Positions 803 to 12,033 of a stretch of DNA of 64,000 nucleotides are shown here, in pieces. Source of the stretch: Rubripirellula sp. (GTDB taxonomy: Bacteria; Planctomycetota; Planctomycetia; Pirellulales; Pirellulaceae); the NCBI GenBank assembly GCA_965216875.1, contig OZ244207.1, forward strand, positions 1,472,001 to 1,536,000, given 5' to 3'. A program made the position numbers and the translations under genes. The notes beneath the pieces are model-generated. The model searched no databases, was not told the origin of the DNA, and saw only the letters and a program-made list of their open reading frames with translations. Numbering within the stretch: position 1 is the first letter of the stretch; each line of letters begins with the position of its first letter.

Positions 803-911
803 CACTCTCCCTTGGGAGAGTCGGGCTCTAAGGCCCGGAGAGGGTTTGTTTTGTCTCGATCATTCCCTCCCCGGACTTTAGCGTCCGACCCTCCCGCAAG
901 CGGGAGGGTGA
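803..911. repeat. REP-like palindromic element (CCCTCCC/GGGAGGG family)
   Basis: Nested hairpins ctctcccttgggagag and accctcccgcaagcgggagggt. A related copy lies in the opposite orientation at about 59822-59862. Confidence 0.7.
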
Positions 912-1266
912 TATTTGGAACGCGCGTTAACTCGGGCAAGCACTTCTAAGGGGGCACGCCACTGCTGATGGGGGATCGGGAATGGGCACGTGTCGATCTG
1001 TCCAGCAGTTGGGTGGCCCCCTCGTTCTTGATTGATCAACAGAGTGCTTGGTCAATTGCATCTGGTCGTCAGCCGAGCCATCCTATACGGATCGACGCTG
1101 TTCGAACGAATCGCCTCCGTAGAGTCCTCTTTGGTTTTTATTCAACATGGCGATTTGGATTGGCGGGCACATGGTGCGCCCCAACAAGCGTCCGATCGTG
1201 CCTAGACGTCGCACGCCTTCCGCAGAGTCGTCGACAATTTGCTGAACTTATTCTTAACACTTTGAA

Positions 1267-2523
1267 ATGGATAAACCGATGCGCCGCGCCAAACGCTTCC
1301 TGTTGGTCGTACCCCTCCTTTCCGGTCTGCTCGTACCGTCGTTTGCACTAGGTGACACCTGGACTGACGTCTCGGGCAAGCACACCATTGAAGCCAAATT
1401 CCTGAGCGTCGCTGGTGGCAAGGTCTATCTCGAAAAGGCGGACGGCACTCGTATTGCTGTACCAATCAAACAGCTTTCGCCAGAGAGTTTGGCTCAGGCG
1501 AAGGCCGCCTATGAAGCTTCCAAGGGTGCAAGTTCGACAGCGGTCGTGCCACGCGATGCCTCGATGAAGGCAGCTTCGGCGCCATCCGGAAAAAGCAAGC
1601 TTGGGTCAAATCCGACGGCTCGCGAAACGGCCGAAGCTCTTACCGCTGCCGTGGCCGAATTTGACATGGTGACAATGTGGGATGCCTTCCCACCGAAGTA
1701 CCAGGACGACATCACCGGCACGATCCAACTCGCCGCAAAATCGATCGACTCGTCGATGTGGAACAGCGTCACCGGTCTGCTGAAGAAGGCAAGCCGCCTC
1801 GTGTCGGAGAAGAAAGAGTTTTTCATGGGCAACGCGATGATCGGCCAACAGATGCCGCCAGGTCCTGAGACCGATAAGGTTTGGGATGCAAGTGCCGCCC
1901 TGCTTGCCGCCTACGTGAACTCGAGCATCACCAACCAAAACACAATGAAGAGTTTTGATATGGATAACTTCATTGCCAAGGACGTGCCGAAGCTTCGCGC
2001 AGCTTACACCGAGCTACAAGCGTTGACCGAAGACCTTGATGATTCGCCTTTCGGCCAGATCTCGGAAGTCCCGACCATCGAAGTCGTTTCCGAAAGCTCC
2101 GACAAAGCAGTCTTCAAGGTCACGACCAACGGCGAGACCGAGGAGCAAACGGTCGTCAAAGTTGACAACCGCTGGCTACCCGAGGATATGGTTCGCGACT
2201 GGGACAAAGAAATCCAAAAGGCCCATGAGAGCCTGAAGCAACTTGCTACGCCTGAAGGACAGCAGGGAATGATGCAAGCACAAATGATGCTTGGCATGGT
2301 GGGTGGTCCCATTGACCAAATGCTCGCCGCAAATTCGCAACAGGAATTTGACAACGTGATCAACGGCATCATGCAGATGGCGATGGGCATGATGGGTGGC
2401 ATGGGCGGACCCGGAGGCCCAGGTGGTTTTGGACCTGGCGGTCCCGGTGGCTTCGGACCAGGCGGCCCCGGTGGCGGACCACCTCCAGGATTTGGTGGCG
2501 ACGCGTTTCCCGATGACTTTTAA
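1267..2523 (+). CDS. Secreted SHD1-domain protein with Gly/Pro/Met-rich tail
   Basis: Signal peptide, then TWTDVSGKHTIEAKF...VYLEKADGTRIAVPIKQLS (SHD1 pattern common in planctomycetes). C-terminal GGPGG repeats. Confidence 0.8.
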   Translation: MDKPMRRAKRFLLVVPLLSGLLVPSFALGDTWTDVSGKHTIEAKFLSVAGGKVYLEKADGTRIAVPIKQLSPESLAQAKAAYEASKGASSTAVVPRDASMKAASAPSGKSKLGSNPTARETAEALTAAVAEFDMVTMWDAFPPKYQDDITGTIQLAAKSIDSSMWNSVTGLLKKASRLVSEKKEFFMGNAMIGQQMPPGPETDKVWDASAALLAAYVNSSITNQNTMKSFDMDNFIAKDVPKLRAAYTELQALTEDLDDSPFGQISEVPTIEVVSESSDKAVFKVTTNGETEEQTVVKVDNRWLPEDMVRDWDKEIQKAHESLKQLATPEGQQGMMQAQMMLGMVGGPIDQMLAANSQQEFDNVINGIMQMAMGMMGGMGGPGGPGGFGPGGPGGFGPGGPGGGPPPGFGGDAFPDDF

Positions 2524-2548
2524 ATAACGCTGATTCTCGAGCGATACC

Positions 2549-2591
2549 AACGTCGCGTGGCGATCAATCGATTGATTCGCTACGCGACGTT
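2549..2591. terminator. Long hairpin between convergent genes (putative bidirectional terminator)
   Basis: aacgtcgcgtggcgatcaatcgattgattcgctacgcgacgtt is an almost fully paired inverted repeat. No clear U-tract. Confidence 0.5.
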
Positions 2592-3375
2592 AACCGGTTT
2601 CCGCTACCTCCAACGCCCGTTCGACCTGTCTTTTAAGGCGTTGAAGCAAGTCCCGAGGCGCAAGGATTCGTACTGTTGCTCCCGGCCCCTCATCTATCGG
2701 GTACACGCCAAGTTGAGCAGCCGGATACTCTGAAGCGGTTGCCTTGAGAATTGGCCCAATCTTGCCTTCGCCCATATCAGTGCGTATCTCCAGTTTCTCG
2801 AATTGGGAGGGGCCCAGGCCGTGGGACTTGGAAAGCGAGAGCAAGAACTTTTCGATCATCGGATTCAGCTCGCGAGGAATTCCTGGAAAGGCGCTGACAT
2901 TGCCAATCGTAAAGCCTGGCGCCGCGCCCATGATGTTTTCGATAACGACAGCACCTTCCGGGAGCAAAGCCATTTTTAGACGATGCTCGTTCAGTTCTAG
3001 TTTGGTTGGATCTTTCCCCTCCTTTCTTGCTGTGGCTTGGCGGCGTTCATAGAACGATTGCAACTGCCGAACTGCTTCAGGATGTTCGAGCCGTTTTACG
3101 CAGAACGCGTCCGCAATGCACTCGGCAGTGATGTCATCGTGAGTTGGTCCAAGTCCTCCGCTCACGATGACATGTTCATAACGCTCCCGAAGGTGATCGA
3201 CAGCCGAAACGATTTCATTGTGGACATCCTCGACGACCCTAGCCTCGATGATCCTCGCATCGTAGGGACTTAGATGCCGTGCAACGTTCTGTAAGTTGGC
3301 ATCCCGAGTGTTGCCGTTAAGTACCTCATTAGCGACAACCAGCATCGCCCATCTTCTTACCGGAGAAGCCGTCAT
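2590..3375 (-). CDS. CinA N-terminal / COG1058 molybdopterin-binding-fold protein (putative ADP-ribose/NAD(H)/FAD pyrophosphatase)
   Basis: ANEVLNGNTRDAN, SGGLGPTHDDITAE, MALLPEGA and FPGIPRE motifs. No C-terminal NMN deamidase domain. Confidence 0.88.
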   Translation of the reverse strand: MTASPVRRWAMLVVANEVLNGNTRDANLQNVARHLSPYDARIIEARVVEDVHNEIVSAVDHLRERYEHVIVSGGLGPTHDDITAECIADAFCVKRLEHPEAVRQLQSFYERRQATARKEGKDPTKLELNEHRLKMALLPEGAVVIENIMGAAPGFTIGNVSAFPGIPRELNPMIEKFLLSLSKSHGLGPSQFEKLEIRTDMGEGKIGPILKATASEYPAAQLGVYPIDEGPGATVRILAPRDLLQRLKRQVERALEVAETG

Positions 3376-6300
3376 CGGTTTGTATCCTTGACCTGTTCAA
3401 ACAACTTGATGAACTCGCGTCTCGTTACGTCCGCGAGTTTGCTTGGTTTGATGTCTTTCGACTTAAGCAACAATCGGAGCAATGTGTCGGCAAGCTGGGG
3501 TGAGTACTTTATGTAGTTCTTGATCTTCGACCGTTCGATCACCTTCGCTTCTCTGGTATCCAGTTCATCGATGGTGAGGTTCGACAGCGGAACGTCAAAC
3601 TCGAGTTTGCCTTCACTTGACGGCAAGCGGCAAACTGGGATGCCAATACCTCGACGGAAACGCGAGATTTCAGCGTTGGGCGAGGTGAGGTAGTTCAGGA
3701 TTTTGCATCCAACTTCAGCAGTGCCTTGAGCCACATTAGGGGGAATGGCTAGATACCATTGGCCTGCCGTAGTGATGCGACCTGGCAGATTACGCGCCTT
3801 TAAGTTCACGTTTTCAAGATCCTGGGACAGGTCGTTGGCAAGCTTGTCCGAAAGATCTTGAGCCGTGGAAAACCACTGCCTCCATACGGTGGCGGTGCGG
3901 TCGACTTGAAACGCCTCTGGGTCAGGTGAACCGGCGGCAAGCAGCTTCGAGTAACGCCGACTCTCAAAGGACTTGCGCAGTAGTCTGCAAAAAACGGTTC
4001 CCGACGCGATGGCCACTTCGTGATGATTCCCTTTCTTGTTCATGTCCGGAATTGACCATGCGTAGTGGTCCCCTCGAGCATCGTGTTTGAAAAAATCGTC
4101 GCCCATCTGATAAGCGAAGATCTCAAGGAACAGTGAATTAATGTTCTCCACAACGCCAAAAGGGCAGTCAAATCTGATCGAGGGGTTTACCTTGTCGGCC
4201 TCGCGTGCCATCGCTTCCCAAGGGTTGGGATCTGAATAGATTTTTTTGAGTGTTCCGCTACCATCATCGCGATAGCACAAGAACGAAATGTTGTCATAGA
4301 AGGGAACAGCAGTGAACTCCTTTGAGGAGTTTAACCAGACTTGGCGGCTGATTCGTTTTGGCAGGCTTTGGATTGCGCCACCGAATGCCGATTGTGGAAG
4401 TCGTTTGCTAAGCGTGCTCTCGGGGGTTCGCTTCCAATCTTGCTCGAGAGTCGCAGGTTGTTTTATTCTCGTTCGACCGGCCTTACGAATCTCTGAGACC
4501 TGAAAGGAGTCCAAGGCGACGATGGGAAGTCCGGGAAGCGCCGAATCGTGACTCGCTTCAAAGGCGAAGAATGCGGCATCGCGGTCAAGCGACCGGACGG
4601 TAACTTCAGGAGCTAGCGTCGACGTGAGCACTTCCTTTTGATTGTTCAGATAGTCATCCATGCGATAGCTTTCAAGTGGAACGACGAGTCGAACAGGCTC
4701 TTCTTGCACCCTACCGGACAGGTCCGTCGCAAGCATTCGCTCAAGGGGTTGAGTTGCCAGGCCTGACTCCGACTCTGGTATCAATTCAACTGATTCCCAT
4801 CGGTGACTCATCCTCGGCGTTTTGGTTACCCGAAGTAACATACGACGACGCCCGAGAAGTTCTTTCGGCTCAATTTCCAGCAACATGTCGGCGGCTTCAT
4901 GGATCGCTCTGCAAATGCTGGACGACTGCAAGTCTTCGACTTTGCGATCCGTTGCAAGGATTGCAACCTGTCGGCGGCGAAACCAACGAATCAGTGATGG
5001 CCCGAAGTCTGGTTCAAGATCCAGTAGTGGGCTGAGGTGGCTCCATTCCGTCGGCGCATCGAGCAACACTCGATCGATGATCGTTCCGTCATCTCTTGCC
5101 TGTTCCCAGACATCTTCCAGGTGTTTAAATAGCTCCCCCGCACTTCCAAAGCCCGGTTTCAGCTTGAGCGTGTCGATCTGTTTCTGCAGATAAATGTTAC
5201 CGCGTGATAGAAACGTATTCTCATCAGGCGCTAGCTCCTGCGCTCGATACAAGAGGTTGTTTCGAATCGCGCGTTTGACCGACTTGGACGCTAATCGATG
5301 ATCGATCTCTGATTGCTCAAATCGCATGCTCACAACGAGTCCTTTGCGATTGAGATTGTCGGATCGCGATCCAGAGGGCAGCAGCTTTTTTGATTGCTGA
5401 GTTGTTCGCCGCACCGCTGGGTCACAAAAATCTTGCTGGTTGAGCCAACTGGCGAAGGCTAGGCCCAAGTGCGTTTTGAACGTCCCAATCGGACCTGAAA
5501 CCAAGATCAGATCACCCTGCCGCACGGACTTTTCGCCCAAGTGACGATCCAAGCTTGGCAGTCCAAAGTAGCCATCAGAGCTTCCGTCGCTCGGCAAGGA
5601 TCTTACGACTCGTACGCTATCGATCGAATCGATCGCAGCAGCAGTGAGCGAGATACGGATGCCCTCACCGGATCGGATCGCAAAAAACTGCTGCCCACGA
5701 ATCTCACGCTGGAATCGGGATTTCGTGACAGCCAAACTGCGTTTGGTGTAGTCACCTGCTTTTTGGTAACCCAGTCGAATCACAGTATCGGCGATGTCTT
5801 CGCCGAAACCGAGCCAACGCTCGTCGTCCTCTTCTGCAACGAGCACAACGTTCGCGCCTGTGTCGCAAGCCTTGCGGAGTGCAGCGTACATCAGCCGCCG
5901 CGGCTTGGATCGCTCTGGATCGCTCTCGGCCTGGTCGTCCAGAAGTAACGCATTGACCGGATCAATAAAGATCGCTCGCGGGCCATCGGGAACCATGTTT
6001 TCCGAAACAGCCTTAAGAGCGTCCAGTACGGTTTCAAGCGGCATCGGAGCATTGGCGGTGTCCTTCTTCGCGCCGTTGCCTGAAGCCTTTTCTTCCGTGT
6101 CCGTGTCATCGCTGTCCTGAACTTGGTGAGTCAGCGCACACAAAACGCCGAGTGACTTAGGCGATGAGACCACTTCGTTGGGATCGTTTTCACGCGTCTG
6201 GTAAGCTGCAACGCGTGAGGCTTCGAGTCGGAATCGTCGATCGATTGAATCGGGAGACATCGATTCCAACATGTATCGAACGTCTCGCGCGGTCAGTTCT

Positions 6301-7496
6301 AATCCGAAATACCAAGCGGTTCCGCCCTTGGCCGCAACCTCTGCAGCGAGTTGCAATGAGAGAAGAGACTTCCCCGTGCCGTAGCCACCGCGTACCAAAA
6401 CGACGCGGCCCCGTGGGATATTGGTCTCATGGGTGGTGTAGAACGCAGGTGTGTCGCAAAAATTGATGCCGCCACCACCAAACAGATCGTCGAAACCCGG
6501 GATCATGGTGGGGAGGCCAAACAGGTTTGAGATCATGTACTCAAGATCGATCTCAACCGGCACGAATCGAAACCTGCCCTGACGAGAATGTGTCGTGATG
6601 TATTTGCACAACAGGCAAGTTGCAATGAAACCATGACTTTCGGGGGTCAAGCCGTCACTGCGTCTGACCCTACCAGCTTTCCGCAACCGAGTCGAAAGAT
6701 CTTCATAGAGCACGGTCCGCGATCGATGGTTTTTGTGAGGAATGATGTCCTCTAGCGAATGTGCAAACGTTCGGAACGTTTCCAACGCATCGACTTCGCT
6801 ATTGATGCCGTACATGCGGCGAATCGTCCGGCGAAGCCAGTAGTTGCGAACTGCGGGTTCGACGGAATCGCCGAAGACCAGTTCGCCCACTTCGTGAAGA
6901 CTGAAAAAAAGGAAGTGCGAATCTCGTTTCTGCCGATCAAGCTTGCGAGACACAAGCTCTGCGCCAAGGCAGCTGACAAGCTCTTCGGTCTGCTTGGAGT
7001 CCAGCCCGAGTCGCTTGCTCGTCAGGAACGCGGCGAGTACGGATGTGTTTCTATCGGTCCTCCATTTCGCTGCTTTGATTGTTGCGTCGATTTCAGCGCT
7101 GTGCCGTTCGAGCCACTGTTCAAGTTCGCCGTATTTCTTTTTGTCGGTCGAGTAGCGTTTCAGCAAGGCCGCGAGGTGCGGAAAGTCGTCATTGCCAATT
7201 CGTGACCGCAACTTTGGCAAACACTCGACAAGCTCCAGATAGCCCACGACCTCCTTGGAGACGTCTTCCACAATGCTCTTGGAACTTTGGTGTTGCGCGC
7301 GATCTTTTGCTTTATGTATCGACTCGAGTGCTCGGTTGAGATGCTTGTGCGAATTGAAAAGGCGGTTGAGTGTGACGCCCTGTTCGGCGTCGCAATCCCA
7401 CTGAGCGAGCACAAACACGGTCGTGAATCGAGCCATCGACTCAAAGTCGTCGCCAACGTGTTTTCGAACAAACGCTTGGAGCGGAGAAGCTGTCAT
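3372..7496 (-). CDS. Double-domain KaiC/RecA-like ATPase fused to a C-terminal solute-binding-protein-like domain
   Basis: Domain 1: GLPTMIPGFDDLF, VVLVRGGYGTGKS, AIFID, RSLAVTKSR. Domain 2: FGLPSLDRHLG, LILVSGPIGTFKT, VLLD, RVTK. C-terminus: AVPFYDNISFLCYRDD and GQWYLAI...KILNYLTSP, resembling family-1 SBPs. Confidence 0.8.
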   Translation of the reverse strand: MTASPLQAFVRKHVGDDFESMARFTTVFVLAQWDCDAEQGVTLNRLFNSHKHLNRALESIHKAKDRAQHQSSKSIVEDVSKEVVGYLELVECLPKLRSRIGNDDFPHLAALLKRYSTDKKKYGELEQWLERHSAEIDATIKAAKWRTDRNTSVLAAFLTSKRLGLDSKQTEELVSCLGAELVSRKLDRQKRDSHFLFFSLHEVGELVFGDSVEPAVRNYWLRRTIRRMYGINSEVDALETFRTFAHSLEDIIPHKNHRSRTVLYEDLSTRLRKAGRVRRSDGLTPESHGFIATCLLCKYITTHSRQGRFRFVPVEIDLEYMISNLFGLPTMIPGFDDLFGGGGINFCDTPAFYTTHETNIPRGRVVLVRGGYGTGKSLLSLQLAAEVAAKGGTAWYFGLELTARDVRYMLESMSPDSIDRRFRLEASRVAAYQTRENDPNEVVSSPKSLGVLCALTHQVQDSDDTDTEEKASGNGAKKDTANAPMPLETVLDALKAVSENMVPDGPRAIFIDPVNALLLDDQAESDPERSKPRRLMYAALRKACDTGANVVLVAEEDDERWLGFGEDIADTVIRLGYQKAGDYTKRSLAVTKSRFQREIRGQQFFAIRSGEGIRISLTAAAIDSIDSVRVVRSLPSDGSSDGYFGLPSLDRHLGEKSVRQGDLILVSGPIGTFKTHLGLAFASWLNQQDFCDPAVRRTTQQSKKLLPSGSRSDNLNRKGLVVSMRFEQSEIDHRLASKSVKRAIRNNLLYRAQELAPDENTFLSRGNIYLQKQIDTLKLKPGFGSAGELFKHLEDVWEQARDDGTIIDRVLLDAPTEWSHLSPLLDLEPDFGPSLIRWFRRRQVAILATDRKVEDLQSSSICRAIHEAADMLLEIEPKELLGRRRMLLRVTKTPRMSHRWESVELIPESESGLATQPLERMLATDLSGRVQEEPVRLVVPLESYRMDDYLNNQKEVLTSTLAPEVTVRSLDRDAAFFAFEASHDSALPGLPIVALDSFQVSEIRKAGRTRIKQPATLEQDWKRTPESTLSKRLPQSAFGGAIQSLPKRISRQVWLNSSKEFTAVPFYDNISFLCYRDDGSGTLKKIYSDPNPWEAMAREADKVNPSIRFDCPFGVVENINSLFLEIFAYQMGDDFFKHDARGDHYAWSIPDMNKKGNHHEVAIASGTVFCRLLRKSFESRRYSKLLAAGSPDPEAFQVDRTATVWRQWFSTAQDLSDKLANDLSQDLENVNLKARNLPGRITTAGQWYLAIPPNVAQGTAEVGCKILNYLTSPNAEISRFRRGIGIPVCRLPSSEGKLEFDVPLSNLTIDELDTREAKVIERSKIKNYIKYSPQLADTLLRLLLKSKDIKPSKLADVTRREFIKLFEQVKDTNR

Positions 7497-8242
7497 CGAG
7501 CCGAATTCCTACGGAGGCCAATACGTTCTTGAAAGCCAGTTTTTTTCGCAGGAAGCGCCTTGAGAGAAAGCCGCAAGTCGTATTGTTTGTTCATGATTGC
7601 GTTGGCAGGCGCTGCGGTTAGGACTTCAGGGCGGTGTGCAGGCGAATGTTCCACCGCAATAGCAAACGCAGCTGGCTCAACCACTTCAGTATTGAAAACG
7701 GTTTCGTCTTGCGATTCTTCGATGGGGGCTTCGTCCGCTAGCTCAACCGGTTGTGGCAGTGCATTGACTTCCTCGTCGCATCTCCCCTGGTCATCGCAAC
7801 CGAATACCTTGCCGCCATGTTTGAGTGTGAGTGCGAGTGAATTGAAATAGATAACAGCTGTCCGCAAAACATCGCTTGGTGAGGGCACGTGGTCATGTTT
7901 GTCCTTCATGTGTGCCTTGATGACTGCAATCAGGTTCGCGTGCCTTGGTTGTTTCGCGATTAGCAAGTTCTTTGTGAATCCGCCCGTCTGATCGTTCGAG
8001 CTCATTGCGAGCGATTTGATCGGCGATGCCACGTAGTAGGTTTCGCTTTGGTCAGAGTTTGAAACCAACAGTTGCTTTTCGCGATCGATTTCAAGAAGGC
8101 GGCGCAATAGATCAAGCGCTATACACAGCGATTCCGGGCGACCTTTGTTTCCATGCAGCTCGCGTGATATCAGGCAAAAGCTGTCTCGATCACTCTCGTG
8201 CAGTCGAAAGGAAAAGCGTTCCTTGGATTTTTTTTCAGACAT
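7493..8242 (-). CDS. Hypothetical protein with two ribbon-helix-helix-like repeats
   Basis: ERFSFRL...ESLCIALDLLRRL and SPSDVLRTAVIYFNSL...GGKVFGCDDQG resemble CopG-type RHH modules. ATGA overlap with the KaiC gene. Confidence 0.55.
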   Translation of the reverse strand: MSEKKSKERFSFRLHESDRDSFCLISRELHGNKGRPESLCIALDLLRRLLEIDREKQLLVSNSDQSETYYVASPIKSLAMSSNDQTGGFTKNLLIAKQPRHANLIAVIKAHMKDKHDHVPSPSDVLRTAVIYFNSLALTLKHGGKVFGCDDQGRCDEEVNALPQPVELADEAPIEESQDETVFNTEVVEPAAFAIAVEHSPAHRPEVLTAAPANAIMNKQYDLRLSLKALPAKKTGFQERIGLRRNSAR

Positions 8243-8262
8243 TGTCTTGCCTATCGTTGACC

Positions 8263-9714
8263 CTACTCTTCAAACGTAAGATTCGTTCCGATCACTTTTG
8301 TGAGCTCTTTTCTTGCTTCATCCGTGAGGATTGATCCAGGGGGACGCTTCAGCGTGCGTTCGATATCTCGGAGACAACGTCCGACCACTTCGCAAAAGAT
8401 TGGATTCAAGTCGTCCCACGTGTTCCCGCCGATGTGACGTGTCACGAGGACATCGGGCAGGACTTCATTTAGTAGGACTTGGACGGCAGCACCCTCCTCT
8501 TTCTCGGTGCCAGCCTCTTTGTCTTCTTCGTCTTCGTCACGGACTAAATGGTCGACGCTCCGATGCGTCAACCCACCGCTCATCTCGGGACAAAGTCGGA
8601 GCAGCGGATGCCTTTCCGCGAGCACCGTTGGGTTGTTTTCGCATCGCGCGTCGAGCAAGTCAGATGCCGCGCGAATGACCTTTTTCGAGACGGCCTCAGC
8701 GACATCGTGTTCGTTCCATATCGCGTGTCTTGCGACGTTGATCAACAGCGGCAACGGGCCCTGATCACTACCCATTGCGGAAATCAACTCCTCGTTGACG
8801 ACTCCCAAAGTGTTTTGGGCTTCCTTGAGGTGAATGGACACGATGTCGCGATTGTTGACGGCGGCCGAGAGTGTTTTGCAGGCCGTGATCCAGATGGCCT
8901 TGCCATTGGAAGACCTGAATTTGCATTCCAACGTGGTGTCGTCGTCGTTGTGTTCAACGTACTCCAAACTCCAGTTTCCCCAGCCGGTCGATTTCCGAAC
9001 AAAGACGACCAGGTGTTCAAGGATCTGGGTCTCGTTCATGTTTTCGTATTTGTAGTGGAATCCAGAAAAACGATTCACTCCACAGATCACAAGACGCTGG
9101 AACAGAACGTTCACCTGGTTGCCCATCCCAAGAAATGACCAACTTTTTGAAGCGAGGCGACGACTCTGTTCCAGTCCGAAGACAAGAAAGTGGGGAAACT
9201 CCGTTTCGTCTCGGTGAGCGGTATACGCCATTCCCCGCGCGTTGGTCGTCAGCGGTCGAAACGCTTCCATGGCAAACCAGAGGGTCAAATCGACGACCGC
9301 CTCACTATTGGTCGTGACCGTGGCTGCATGAGCGTGGGAATTGTCCGGCCTTGCCTGGGCTTTGAGGCTTGGCTTGAGTCCAACCGAGAGCGAACCCAGG
9401 ACAAGGGGCACGGCTGGATCTCGCTGAAGACCAGCTATGTAATCGCCAAGGTTGTTCCCACCGGTTGTAGGCCTTGAAATAATACACGTAGCATTTGCGA
9501 TCGCCTCTTGATCGTCAGAGCTGTAGTTGGCGCTGGAACTCTCTTGGATTTGATAGAGCCTGATGTTGTCGTTCGCGTTTAGTTTCCGCAAAACGCGCAG
9601 CCCAGCGAGCAGTCCAGAGATACCGTTATTCAACGGAGCCGAATCAAGCGAGCCGGTCACATTAAAGGGGACCGACAACGGCAGTACGACGACTAATGGA
9701 GGTTTCTCTTGCAT
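8263..9714 (-). CDS. Divergent D-2-hydroxyacid dehydrogenase (SerA/CtBP-like) NAD-binding protein
   Basis: Ordered family motifs: NSEAVVDLTL, RLASKSWSFLGMGNQ, DIVSIHL...TLGVVNEELISAM, LLINVARHAIWNE, AASDL, DVLVTRHIGGNT. Start ATG 9714 inferred; the ORF is open to 9876. Confidence 0.7.
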   Translation of the reverse strand: MQEKPPLVVVLPLSVPFNVTGSLDSAPLNNGISGLLAGLRVLRKLNANDNIRLYQIQESSSANYSSDDQEAIANATCIISRPTTGGNNLGDYIAGLQRDPAVPLVLGSLSVGLKPSLKAQARPDNSHAHAATVTTNSEAVVDLTLWFAMEAFRPLTTNARGMAYTAHRDETEFPHFLVFGLEQSRRLASKSWSFLGMGNQVNVLFQRLVICGVNRFSGFHYKYENMNETQILEHLVVFVRKSTGWGNWSLEYVEHNDDDTTLECKFRSSNGKAIWITACKTLSAAVNNRDIVSIHLKEAQNTLGVVNEELISAMGSDQGPLPLLINVARHAIWNEHDVAEAVSKKVIRAASDLLDARCENNPTVLAERHPLLRLCPEMSGGLTHRSVDHLVRDEDEEDKEAGTEKEEGAAVQVLLNEVLPDVLVTRHIGGNTWDDLNPIFCEVVGRCLRDIERTLKRPPGSILTDEARKELTKVIGTNLTFEE

Positions 9715-10069
9715 GTGCCCCGTGGACCCGCGTGCCTCGTGTCTCAACTCCGGTTGCAGGGTGAGAATAGGAACGCCCGCATGCAACCTTTCGCCTCCAG
9801 CCAGGAAAGCTAGAACGAATATAGTAGCTACGCGAATTCGGTCATCAATTGGACAAAAGACCATCTTGTATGCCAATTTCGGGAGGTGCTCGATGTGTAT
9901 GCACTCCTAATGACACACAGTAGCAAGTCTGGTTCATAACGCCAATATAATTCGCGGATAATGCGACAGAGCGTCGTGCCTCCGTGATAGAATAGTGGTA
10001 GGTCAACCGCGAGCTTGGCGTTAAAGACACACGGGATTGCCTGGATTGACATACAAAGAAGCGAGGGCC

Positions 10070-10741
10070 TTACTTGACGTCAAGAGCCTGTTTCAAGGGG
10101 CAGGTCTTATCCAAGTCCCGCTCGCTTCGATAACCGTCGAGTAGATGTTTCGATCGCTGCGCCAGCATTCGGCGCACTTCTCGGCGTTTCCCCTTCACGC
10201 GGGGGATCTTCATGTTGTCGTACGCGGTCGTCTGATGACGCATCCAAGCGATCACGGCCGCTTCCGCACGCTTTTCGACCGGGATGCGTTTGGTGCGAGC
10301 AACCGTGCCGCTGCCAACGGGCGTCGCATGCTTGGTCACTGCACGAGCAAGCTTTTCCGCGATGTCGTGGTGGGCCGGATGAAAGTCGAGGTAGCCGAGC
10401 ACCTCGCCATAGAACTCGTCGACATATTCCGTTTGGACCTTTTGGCGACGTTTGGCGTCGGAGGCTTTTCGTTTTGCGTAGGCATCAGTCGATCGCTCGG
10501 CATCCAAGTCTGCGCGAATCTGGTTGATCGTTTCGGCGGGCGCCCAAACGCCTTTGGAAAAGGTGCGACGCCCTTTCTTTTCCTGGACCACCCAATGCTC
10601 GCCAGCCGCCTTCACTCGCCGCGTCATTCCTGCATCTCCCGGTGGCAATAAAGCCCAGCCCTTCGGGACGGAGATGACCTTCCCCTTCGAATCACGAACG
10701 GTTGAATCGGTGGGGCCCGGTGAGAAAGCATCTTTTGTCAT
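10070..10741 (-). CDS. DUF2293 domain protein
   Basis: HATPVGSGTVART and AVIAWMRHQTTAYD signature. Confidence 0.8.
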   Translation of the reverse strand: MTKDAFSPGPTDSTVRDSKGKVISVPKGWALLPPGDAGMTRRVKAAGEHWVVQEKKGRRTFSKGVWAPAETINQIRADLDAERSTDAYAKRKASDAKRRQKVQTEYVDEFYGEVLGYLDFHPAHHDIAEKLARAVTKHATPVGSGTVARTKRIPVEKRAEAAVIAWMRHQTTAYDNMKIPRVKGKRREVRRMLAQRSKHLLDGYRSERDLDKTCPLKQALDVK

Positions 10742-10894
10742 GAATGTTCGCAACTCCTTGCATTTCAATTGCGACAAACCCTACACGGCGGCGCGTGCAC
10801 AAAGCAACCTGATCACAAAACTTGATTGCCCGCTGGCCAAACACTACCATTAGACGTTGTGTCTAATAATGCGTTTTCCGCGAGGAAGTCTTTG

Positions 10895-11779
10895 ATGTTC
10901 ACGGCCCGCCTGTCACTTGTCTTGTCGATGGTTTTCGGCAGCACGTTGGTCGCAAACGCACAACAATCGGACGAAACGCCGACAGAAGAGGTGCGCAAGT
11001 TATGGATGCAGCGGTATGCGCACGATGCAGCGGCCTATGAGATGTTTCGCCTTGGTGAAAACAAAGAATTGCTCGACTTGGTCAAGACGCCGCTACTGAC
11101 GTTCACCAATCCGATTCGTATTCGCGACACTCATGGTGCTGCGTACGTTTGGACGAGCGATGGTCGACCCGAAATTGTAGGCGCAATCTGGTCGGTGATT
11201 AGTCCACAAGATGCCGAGCGACGGCACGTCTCGCACGAGTTTCATTCGTTGTCGCTGGCGCCGATTGTTTCTGCGCATGAGCCGCGAACCAGCCAGCGCG
11301 GGGTGGTCCCCGATTGGAATGCCGGTGAAGCGGGCATTGAGCGCAAAGACATCCCCCAAGCGGATCGTCCCGTTCCGTCGCCTCTGCGGAGGCTAACGCA
11401 GATGCGCCGGCTTGCCCGGCGATTTGTCGCCCATATCCCGGAGGGCACGCCCGATGGTGCGGGCTCGCTTCGGTTATTGGCTCAGCCTCTCTATCGATAC
11501 GACAGTGACAAGCACGGCGTCATTGACGGCGCCCTGTTCGCCTACGTGATGGGAACCGACCCCGAATTGATCTTGTTGATTGAAGCGGTCGGGGATGACC
11601 AGGATGCGAAGTGGACCTTTTCGGCGGCGCCGTTGAGTAACTTGCCGATGTTCCTAACGGTCGACGAGAACCGGGTTTGGGAATGCCCACGCGCACAGCC
11701 GTTTGTAGGTCATCTACCCCATTTCATGTACTGGGGCGTCTCGTTGCACGGCAAGAAGCCAACAATCCCGACCGAGTAG
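10895..11779 (+). CDS. Secreted planctomycete-type hypothetical protein
   Basis: Signal peptide. LRLLAQPLYRY...DGALFAYVMGTDPELILLIEA motif, seen in planctomycete hypothetical proteins. Confidence 0.7.
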   Translation: MFTARLSLVLSMVFGSTLVANAQQSDETPTEEVRKLWMQRYAHDAAAYEMFRLGENKELLDLVKTPLLTFTNPIRIRDTHGAAYVWTSDGRPEIVGAIWSVISPQDAERRHVSHEFHSLSLAPIVSAHEPRTSQRGVVPDWNAGEAGIERKDIPQADRPVPSPLRRLTQMRRLARRFVAHIPEGTPDGAGSLRLLAQPLYRYDSDKHGVIDGALFAYVMGTDPELILLIEAVGDDQDAKWTFSAAPLSNLPMFLTVDENRVWECPRAQPFVGHLPHFMYWGVSLHGKKPTIPTE

Positions 11780-11830
11780 GTCATGCTCCGCATGACAGAA
11801 GGAGATCCGCAAGGCTGAAGCTAAAGACTT

Positions 11831-12033
11831 CGTAGCTACCTTCGCCAGAAGGTGGGCGCGTTGGTTTTGCGGTGTCCACCACACCACGCTCTGGCGAGCG
11901 TAGCTACGGTGCGTTTGGAAGCCACAGAGTTCACGGAGAGCGAATTCCGATTCTTTCGTAGCTACCTTCGCCAGAAGGTGGTTGCGTTGGTATTGCGGTC
12001 TCCGCTACCCCACGCTCTGGCGAGCGTCGCTAC
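11831..12033. repeat. Two tandem REP units (GTAGCTAC family)
   Basis: gtagctaccttcgccagaaggtgg...ccacgctctggcgagcgt(a/c)gctac at 11831-11908 and 11957-12033. Third copy, inverted, at 22110-22187. Confidence 0.85.

Follow-up and report, generated by a model that had tools for sequence, protein, structure and literature searches.

Several described systems share features with the locus reported here. The nucleoside triphosphate (NTP)-dependent ternary conflict systems of Kaur et al. (2020), of the MoxR-vWA and GAP1 GTPase kinds, use effectors of which some are inactive copies of enzymes (PMC7159879). KaiC ATPases have been proposed as signalling hubs, a proposal cited in PMC5847659. The catalytic residues of DS-9A are required for defence (PMC13092281), and a stand-alone COG1058 enzyme of Agrobacterium prefers ADP-ribose and has three essential acidic residues (PMC3680494). 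Herein, we analysed a stretch of 64,000 nucleotides from Rubripirellula sp. (contig OZ244207.1, positions 1,472,001 to 1,536,000; hereafter the window), in which four genes, g1 to g4, form a cassette around g3, a protein of two KaiC domains and a MalE-type solute-binding protein (SBP) fold. We found that g3 belongs to a KaiC-KaiC-SBP family whose partner genes are swapped from locus to locus and are often of defence type.

The core protein g3 consists of an N-terminal domain, a first KaiC domain (KaiC-1), a degenerate second one (KaiC-2) and the MalE-type fold, in that order, which confirms the KaiC-SBP composition named in an earlier note made from the sequence alone. The tandem KaiC fold resembled that of KaiC by Foldseek (E 1e-24), and g3 scored far below the NCBIfam KaiC cut-offs. 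KaiC-1 keeps the Walker A motif GGYGTGKS, E400, the Walker B D512 and a K592-x-R594 finger, and is predicted to be an active ATPase; its Walker A is canonical in 99/100 family members. In KaiC-2 the Walker A reads GPIGTFKT and is non-canonical, as in nearly all members (canonical in 1/100, Lys retained in 91/100), and this domain is likely to be nucleotide-binding or structural. The N-terminal domain is about 100 amino acids (aa) longer than in typical family members. In the model it ends in three helices and a hairpin, a winged-helix-like topology judged on secondary structure only; it had no PDB or Pfam match, and a profile search against the PDB returned nothing significant.

The MalE-type fold has two lobes, and its nearest structures are sugar binders. 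It shares this form with the MalE-type SBPs of ATP-binding cassette (ABC) transporters; unlike them, g3 has no export signal or membrane anchor, and no permease recurs as a neighbour. A transmembrane segment was not found in g3, whose highest 19-residue hydropathy is 1.25 (values above 1.9 occur in only 5/150 family members). The fold is a C-terminal fusion, and the binding domain likely stays inside the cell; the idea of a cytoplasmic KaiC-SBP sensor put forward before is supported. A CxxC motif lies within the last 60 residues of 50/100 members (family alignment A1) and is missing from g3.

Like the clock protein KaiC and the archaeal hubs (ArlH/FlaH), g3 has a tandem KaiC fold (CI-CII) with a first-domain Walker A, a catalytic Glu and a KxR finger. 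Unlike the KaiC clock, its second domain is degenerate, an N-terminal domain and a binding fold are added, and there is no KaiB: PF07689 had 0 matches in the genome, which is 99% complete, and the Synechococcus control was positive. The region of g3 equivalent to the CII Ser/Thr autophosphorylation sites, picked by eye, is not conserved.

A phmmer search with g3 against 1.84 billion representatives yielded 593 matches with E<=0.001; at the stricter limit of E<=1e-30 there were 191 clusters. The 150 highest-scoring relatives mostly measure 1100-1350 aa and are about 30% identical, with the top matches mostly full length, and Atlas returned a related KaiC+SBP cluster with a score of 0.92. A word-index search had found only g3; its status as an orphan was overturned by this HMMER search. 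Contig scans, which demand exact motif matches and are biased to typical members, yielded 50 family loci, 32 from metagenomes and 18 from genomes, the latter in Acidobacteria, Polyangiaceae, Heliomicrobium and Bacteroidota with a patchy spread. No g3 gene turned up in 60 relatives, nor by its N-terminal domain in 400 genomes of the class; 400 genomes of the phylum had only partial matches to g3 (best E 1e-32), and homologue searches gave one weak match among viral contigs and none among plasmids. No KaiC-solute-binding fusion is described in the literature searched, which comprised main texts and left supplements and most subscription journals outside. The KaiC-KaiC-SBP family is apparently undescribed, and widespread but rare.

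In a FastTree phylogeny (41 rows, 1131 columns), several partner types formed clades and one was scattered. The closest locus to g3 with visible context is L010 (support 0.998), where the order is enzyme, helix-turn-helix (HTH) gene, core. The source genome also carries a remote paralogue (C1:37367-41224, E 3e-9) directly behind a PilT-like ATPase gene (G000:C1:37367-42640; L003 7368-12641). It shares the KaiC-KaiC-SBP order with g3; unlike g3, it has no N-terminal domain, a PilT-like ATPase as partner, native codon use and a very long branch. At another locus (L024), a PilT-like gene lies just downstream of the core gene. The core gene is apparently split into two open reading frames (ORFs) at L034:5730-7548 and L053:3124-7054, possibly by a frameshift or an assembly error.

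The earlier note had treated the four genes as one candidate system, and comparison with the family did not support a recurring one. The outcome that the note had named as refuting, that KaiC-SBP homologues do not co-occur with these partners, was what the family loci showed. Profiles for COG1058 and 2-hydroxyacid dehydrogenases had 0 matches in the 50 family loci (642 kb of six-frame translations); only the window's own genes were matched. Across these loci the four-gene circuit is not conserved; what stays constant is the KaiC-KaiC-SBP protein, and its partners are interchangeable. Many of the 50 loci are short and the neighbourhoods of the closest relatives, P0002, P0004 and P0005, lie outside the set, which leaves room for a small sub-family with g1/g2/g4-type partners around them.

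Removal of 3 duplicates and of 14 loci without a visible upstream gene left 33 distinct loci, which fall into about 13 upstream partner sets. A metallophosphoesterase with an extracytoplasmic function (ECF) sigma factor and a zinc-finger/anti-sigma-like gene occurs at 9/33 (the sigma gene uncalled in one), and an ECF-like pair without the phosphoesterase at 1/33. Six of the 33 (L009, L012, L013, L037, L041, L044) have, two genes upstream of the core, an H-Y-E protein of about 280 aa with the pattern H...YFYAGR...EVRF, ADP-ribosyltransferase-like by eye, and at 2 more its usual second gene occurs without it. Another putative ADP-ribosyltransferase type was seen at 3/33; this enzyme-like family (PTIADA...G.T...E.VH) lies at L025:7154-8122, L043:6958-7827 and L046:7167-7931, in Polyangiaceae and a metagenome contig. 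For both families a PDB profile search gave nothing significant, and the 280-aa family had no Pfam, NCBIfam or PADLOC match. Tetratricopeptide repeat (TPR) sets account for 3/33; L008, L040 and L051 carry a paralogous pair of 390-520-aa proteins of no named family together with a TPR protein bearing the helical domain described below. Single loci have a patatin, an nSTAND1 set, a nitrilase-like gene with an HTH gene, an alpha/beta hydrolase, an HTH-like gene, a KAP NTPase or a TIR-like gene, and partners at 2/33 have no assigned type.

Many of these partners are of defence type. All of the partner metallophosphoesterases tested (9/9) had DS9_1 as best match (E 1e-32 to 3e-41), with scores of 113-142 bits where the cut-off is 420. 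In this the commonest family partner resembles the DS-9/DS-8 anti-phage metallophosphatases from DefensePredictor; apart from the low scores, DS-9 differs in pairing with a HAD phosphatase rather than with a KaiC-SBP protein (PMC13092281), and the window has no such gene. Within the operons, the patatin matched a PADLOC effector (1e-11), the KAP NTPase matched PifA (5e-21), and the nSTAND1 (2e-36) and TIR-like (1e-4) partners were also matched. Single family loci are adjoined by S_4TM (L048:5915-6832), Lamassu (L050:15662-21850), CARF (L013:7868-9955) and SNF2 genes. The family partners being often of defence type, the guess that the cassette is a defence or stress switch gains support.

A helical domain of about 120 aa is shared by 15/33 loci, always directly upstream of the core or fused to it. 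A hidden Markov model trained on the last ~120 residues encoded by 10 upstream genes matched a further 5 non-seed upstream genes and the fusion P0112, and no other position among 566 ORFs. Because the domain is fused ahead of the core in L051 (1928 aa) and P0112, it seems to be coupled to the core. It is single-copy in 3/5 genomes and has 0 copies in the other two. The family thereby resembles the conflict systems of Kaur et al. in its constant NTPase core with variable neighbouring effectors (about 13 sets over 33 loci), its small helical domain of coupling type, its degenerate enzyme copies and its hosts with complex life styles. It differs in that the core combines a double KaiC domain of the RecA class with a MalE-type fold instead of being MoxR/vWA or a GTPase, and in that their effector-associated domain is homotypic, on core and effector, and often expanded, whereas the helical domain here is single-copy and not homotypic. 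Neither "KaiC" nor "RecA" occurs in the main text of PMC7159879.

The architecture, the family, the swapping of partners, the defence-type nature of many of them and purifying selection on g3 are established. Partner swapping around a constant core and the helical domain follow the grammar laid out in PMC7159879. We read the cassette as a foreign, strain-conserved operon that may be a ligand-gated conflict (anti-phage) switch with an NTPase core, a reading to which we assign about an even chance. The MalE-type domain would bind a small molecule of the cytoplasm, probably a sugar-phosphate or a nucleotide breakdown product, and the KaiC-1 ring would in response turn over ATP or assemble differently; KaiC-2 would be a degenerate ring that serves in coupling. 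The N-terminal domain would then relay this change to whatever the directly upstream gene encodes: in relatives this is an effector carrying the shared helical domain, or an anti-sigma-like or HTH protein, and in the present cassette it is g2. As locally recruited accessories, g4 would clear ADP-ribose-like compounds to reset or clean up, and g1, in the effector slot, would act as a decoy or an altered enzyme.

A number of results weigh against the conflict-switch reading. The cassette itself lies among housekeeping genes, as do the family loci L037, L044, L046, L049 and L054, and the counts of defence neighbours are raw numbers. Ordinary signalling, too, makes use of phosphoesterases, ECF sigma factors and patatins. 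The partner labels ADP-ribosyltransferase, nitrilase and CHAT were given by eye, and profiles found nothing for them. With PADLOC (2023 library), the four cassette proteins gave a single match, to the P-loop of mad8, and this was weak (E 0.002). In g3, conserved positions of the binding domain are altered (QLDEFQ to ALDSFQ), and the protein sits on a long branch with P0002, P0004, P0005 and L010. By blastp and phmmer, g1, g2 and g4 had no homologue in the 50 family loci, and the source genome lacks the shared helical domain; the link between g3 and its neighbours here thus rests on the operon layout. Selection on g4, described below, may be weak.

It is possible, although on the unlikely side, that g3 is instead a one-component regulator of metabolism or stress in the manner of MalT or the archaeal KaiC hubs. 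It would sense a sugar or metabolite and act on transcription by way of a winged-helix N-terminal domain, g2 or a sigma/anti-sigma pair, with g1 and g4 as regulated metabolite-repair enzymes. The sugar binders nearest to the MalE-type fold, the ECF sigma or HTH genes at about one third of the loci, the winged-helix-like topology ahead of KaiC-1, the catalytic residues kept by g1 (Arg and His) and g4 (acidic triad), and the hub role proposed for KaiC ATPases are all consistent with such a regulator. It is opposed by the lack of a recurring transporter or catabolic gene beside the core gene, by the turnover of partners, which are often toxin- or defence-like, and by the rarity and ~30% identity of the members, which are unlike ordinary regulators.

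The accessory genes were examined for what they could contribute. The g4 protein matches CinA N-terminal (COG1058) models and stands alone, in agreement with its earlier COG1058 assignment, and the source genome also encodes an ordinary CinA of its own. It is nearest to alphaproteobacterial stand-alone COG1058 proteins (46% to Inquilinus proteins). Like the ADP-ribose pyrophosphatase of the Agrobacterium type, it retains the acidic triad (E17, D50, D81) and the GGLGPxxxD motif (GGLGPTHDD); it departs from that enzyme by its foreign origin, its coupling to a KaiC-SBP gene and a change in the GxExxxG motif, which reads ANEVLNG, with Gly15 replaced by Ala and the rest retained (Gly in 47/47 homologues). 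The g1 protein scored 36.6 bits with Pfam 2-Hacid_dh_C, for which the cut-off is 25.1 bits (Atlas score 0.94), and, aligned to 2-hydroxyacid dehydrogenases, retains the catalytic Arg329 (INVARH) and His427 (TRHIGG). Its glycine-rich GxGxxG loop reads GMGNQV followed by a long insertion, one of two large insertions overall. Of its former description as an NAD-binding dehydrogenase, the family therefore stands and NAD binding is doubtful. No close homologue of g1 was found, a word-index search returning only g1, and its single-sequence fold prediction had a predicted local distance difference test (pLDDT) score of 32.5; it is possibly a local accessory gene, either an altered enzyme or a decoy.

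The g2 protein, which had been described as a tandem ribbon-helix-helix (RHH) protein, had no match in Pfam, NCBIfam, PHROGs, PADLOC, the PDB, plasmids, phages, viral contigs or 300 phylum genomes. Its two putative repeats align no better than shuffles, the strand-helix-helix pattern is visible by eye only, and the C-terminal third is acidic and of low complexity; the RHH character of g2 is at most putative. The original proposal of a conserved four-part NAD/ADP-ribose circuit, with a dehydrogenase sensor, an RHH regulator, a KaiC-SBP transducer and a COG1058 eraser, could draw on the intact COG1058 protein g4, of a family that prefers ADP-ribose (PMC3680494), and on the NAD-fold of g1. With a distribution limited to one species, a broken GxGxxG in g1 and an RHH call that no tool supports, it is very improbable.

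Codon adaptation of g1, g2, g3 and g4 falls at percentiles 6.6, 4.1, 6.1 and 0.3 among 3497 long ORFs, versus 29-80 for four flanking genes; the cassette is, judged by this foreign codon use, horizontally acquired, which upholds the foreign origin suspected before. A contig of a second strain, from another study, spans 890-11805 with 135 differences (~99% identity) and carries the cassette whole, with no gap in 5900-9900 and all four frames indel-free where visible. Scattered pieces were found in the low-depth runs X6 and X7, and next to none in X8. Among the differences listed (40/55 within 5900-9900 and the first 40 of 135 over 890-11805), g3 had 25 synonymous and 5 nonsynonymous codons, a nonsynonymous-to-synonymous ratio (pN/pS) of 0.06 compared with 0.07 for a flanking gene, and it is under purifying selection. 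On the same basis, g2 had 4 synonymous and 3 nonsynonymous changes and the C-terminal part of g4 had 1 and 5, with 7 residue changes over the whole of g4, which may be weakly constrained.

A 17-bp direct repeat is present at either end of g3. Of the 30,628 pairs that the 248 ATGA junctions of the genome can form, this one matches best, and only 34 of the pairs are consecutive, as it is. The repeat was not seen again at 32 related core genes (best 12/15), and it may be a recombination scar. The cassette could then be a mosaic, in which g3 is functional, having been inserted between g2 and g4 through the repeat, and g1, g2 and especially g4 are passengers brought by recombination. The unique, in-register repeat fits this account, as do the alphaproteobacterial type of g4 set against the mostly acidobacterial relatives of g3, the excess of amino-acid changes among those listed for g4, and the co-occurrence of g1, g2 and g4 with the core nowhere else in the 50 family loci. 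Tight translational coupling, the indel-free frames of the second strain where visible, the native length of both N-termini and the fact that family members normally carry partners in exactly such upstream slots speak against it, and we regard a mosaic as quite unlikely.

Going further than the conflict-switch reading, the KaiC-KaiC-SBP proteins might form a new class of immune switch, a notion we hold to be unlikely. A cytoplasmic transporter-type domain would read a metabolite of infection or damage (ADP-ribose-like or another sugar-nucleotide), and a clock-type ring would act as threshold or timer and release plug-in effectors and sigma factors through the helical adaptor; here the COG1058 protein would erase the signal and the dehydrogenase homologue would be effector or decoy. 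The family is the main result and the four-gene set one local instance. With a KaiC double ATPase, an intracellular MalE-type sensor, hundreds of divergent members and plug-in partners, the family would provide an apparently undescribed core for regulated bacterial conflict or signalling systems. The identity of the ligand would reveal a new second messenger or danger signal. The family would also give bacterial KaiC folds a role outside the clock that can be put to the test, with a bearing on KaiC function before timekeeping.

The layout of the locus is given in Table 1. Four same-strand ORFs with a 20-bp spacing and two ATGA overlaps had been noted from the sequence, and all were found as described, on the minus strand, with the spacing between g1 and g2 and the overlaps at 7493-7496 (g2/g3) and 3372-3375 (g3/g4). 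The leader, said to be AT-rich, is so weakly (50% GC vs 56% for the genome), and promoter-like sites were at chance level (4 observed vs 3.8 expected), as was the terminator scan. The surroundings are ordinary planctomycete genes, as stated before, with relatives in the same family.

Table 1. Features of the cassette (window positions)
Feature	Position	Strand	Remarks
g1	8263-9714	minus	ATG at 9714, 483 aa; frame remains open as far as 9876; called in the database from 9864 (533 aa)
g2	7493-8242	minus	249 aa; slot directly upstream of core gene g3
g3	3372-7496	minus	1374-aa core protein
g3 N-terminal domain	6522-7496	minus	aa 1-325; helical, family-specific
g3 KaiC-1	5622-6521	minus	aa 326-625
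g3 KaiC-2	4737-5621	minus	aa 626-920
g3 C-terminal MalE-type solute-binding fold	3375-4736	minus	aa 921-1374
g4	2590-3375	minus	stand-alone COG1058 pyrophosphatase
Intergenic leader	9877-10069	minus	50% GC; presumed promoter region
17-bp direct repeat, copy 1	7482-7498	minus	spans g2/g3 ATGA junction; g3 starts MTASP
17-bp direct repeat, copy 2	3361-3377	minus	one synonymous mismatch; spans g3/g4 ATGA junction; g4 starts MTASP

A clean empty site was not found, the same-genus genomes being rearranged around both flanks. In one of them (G002), the 3.7 kb after the SHD1-domain gene (L106:5526-9238) have no match to the source genome, and the site beyond this gene may take variable inserts. Palindromic intergenic repeats at 797-912 and 11829-12033 of the window had very high contig depth in run X5 and are likely repetitive extragenic palindromic (REP)-type elements of the genome.

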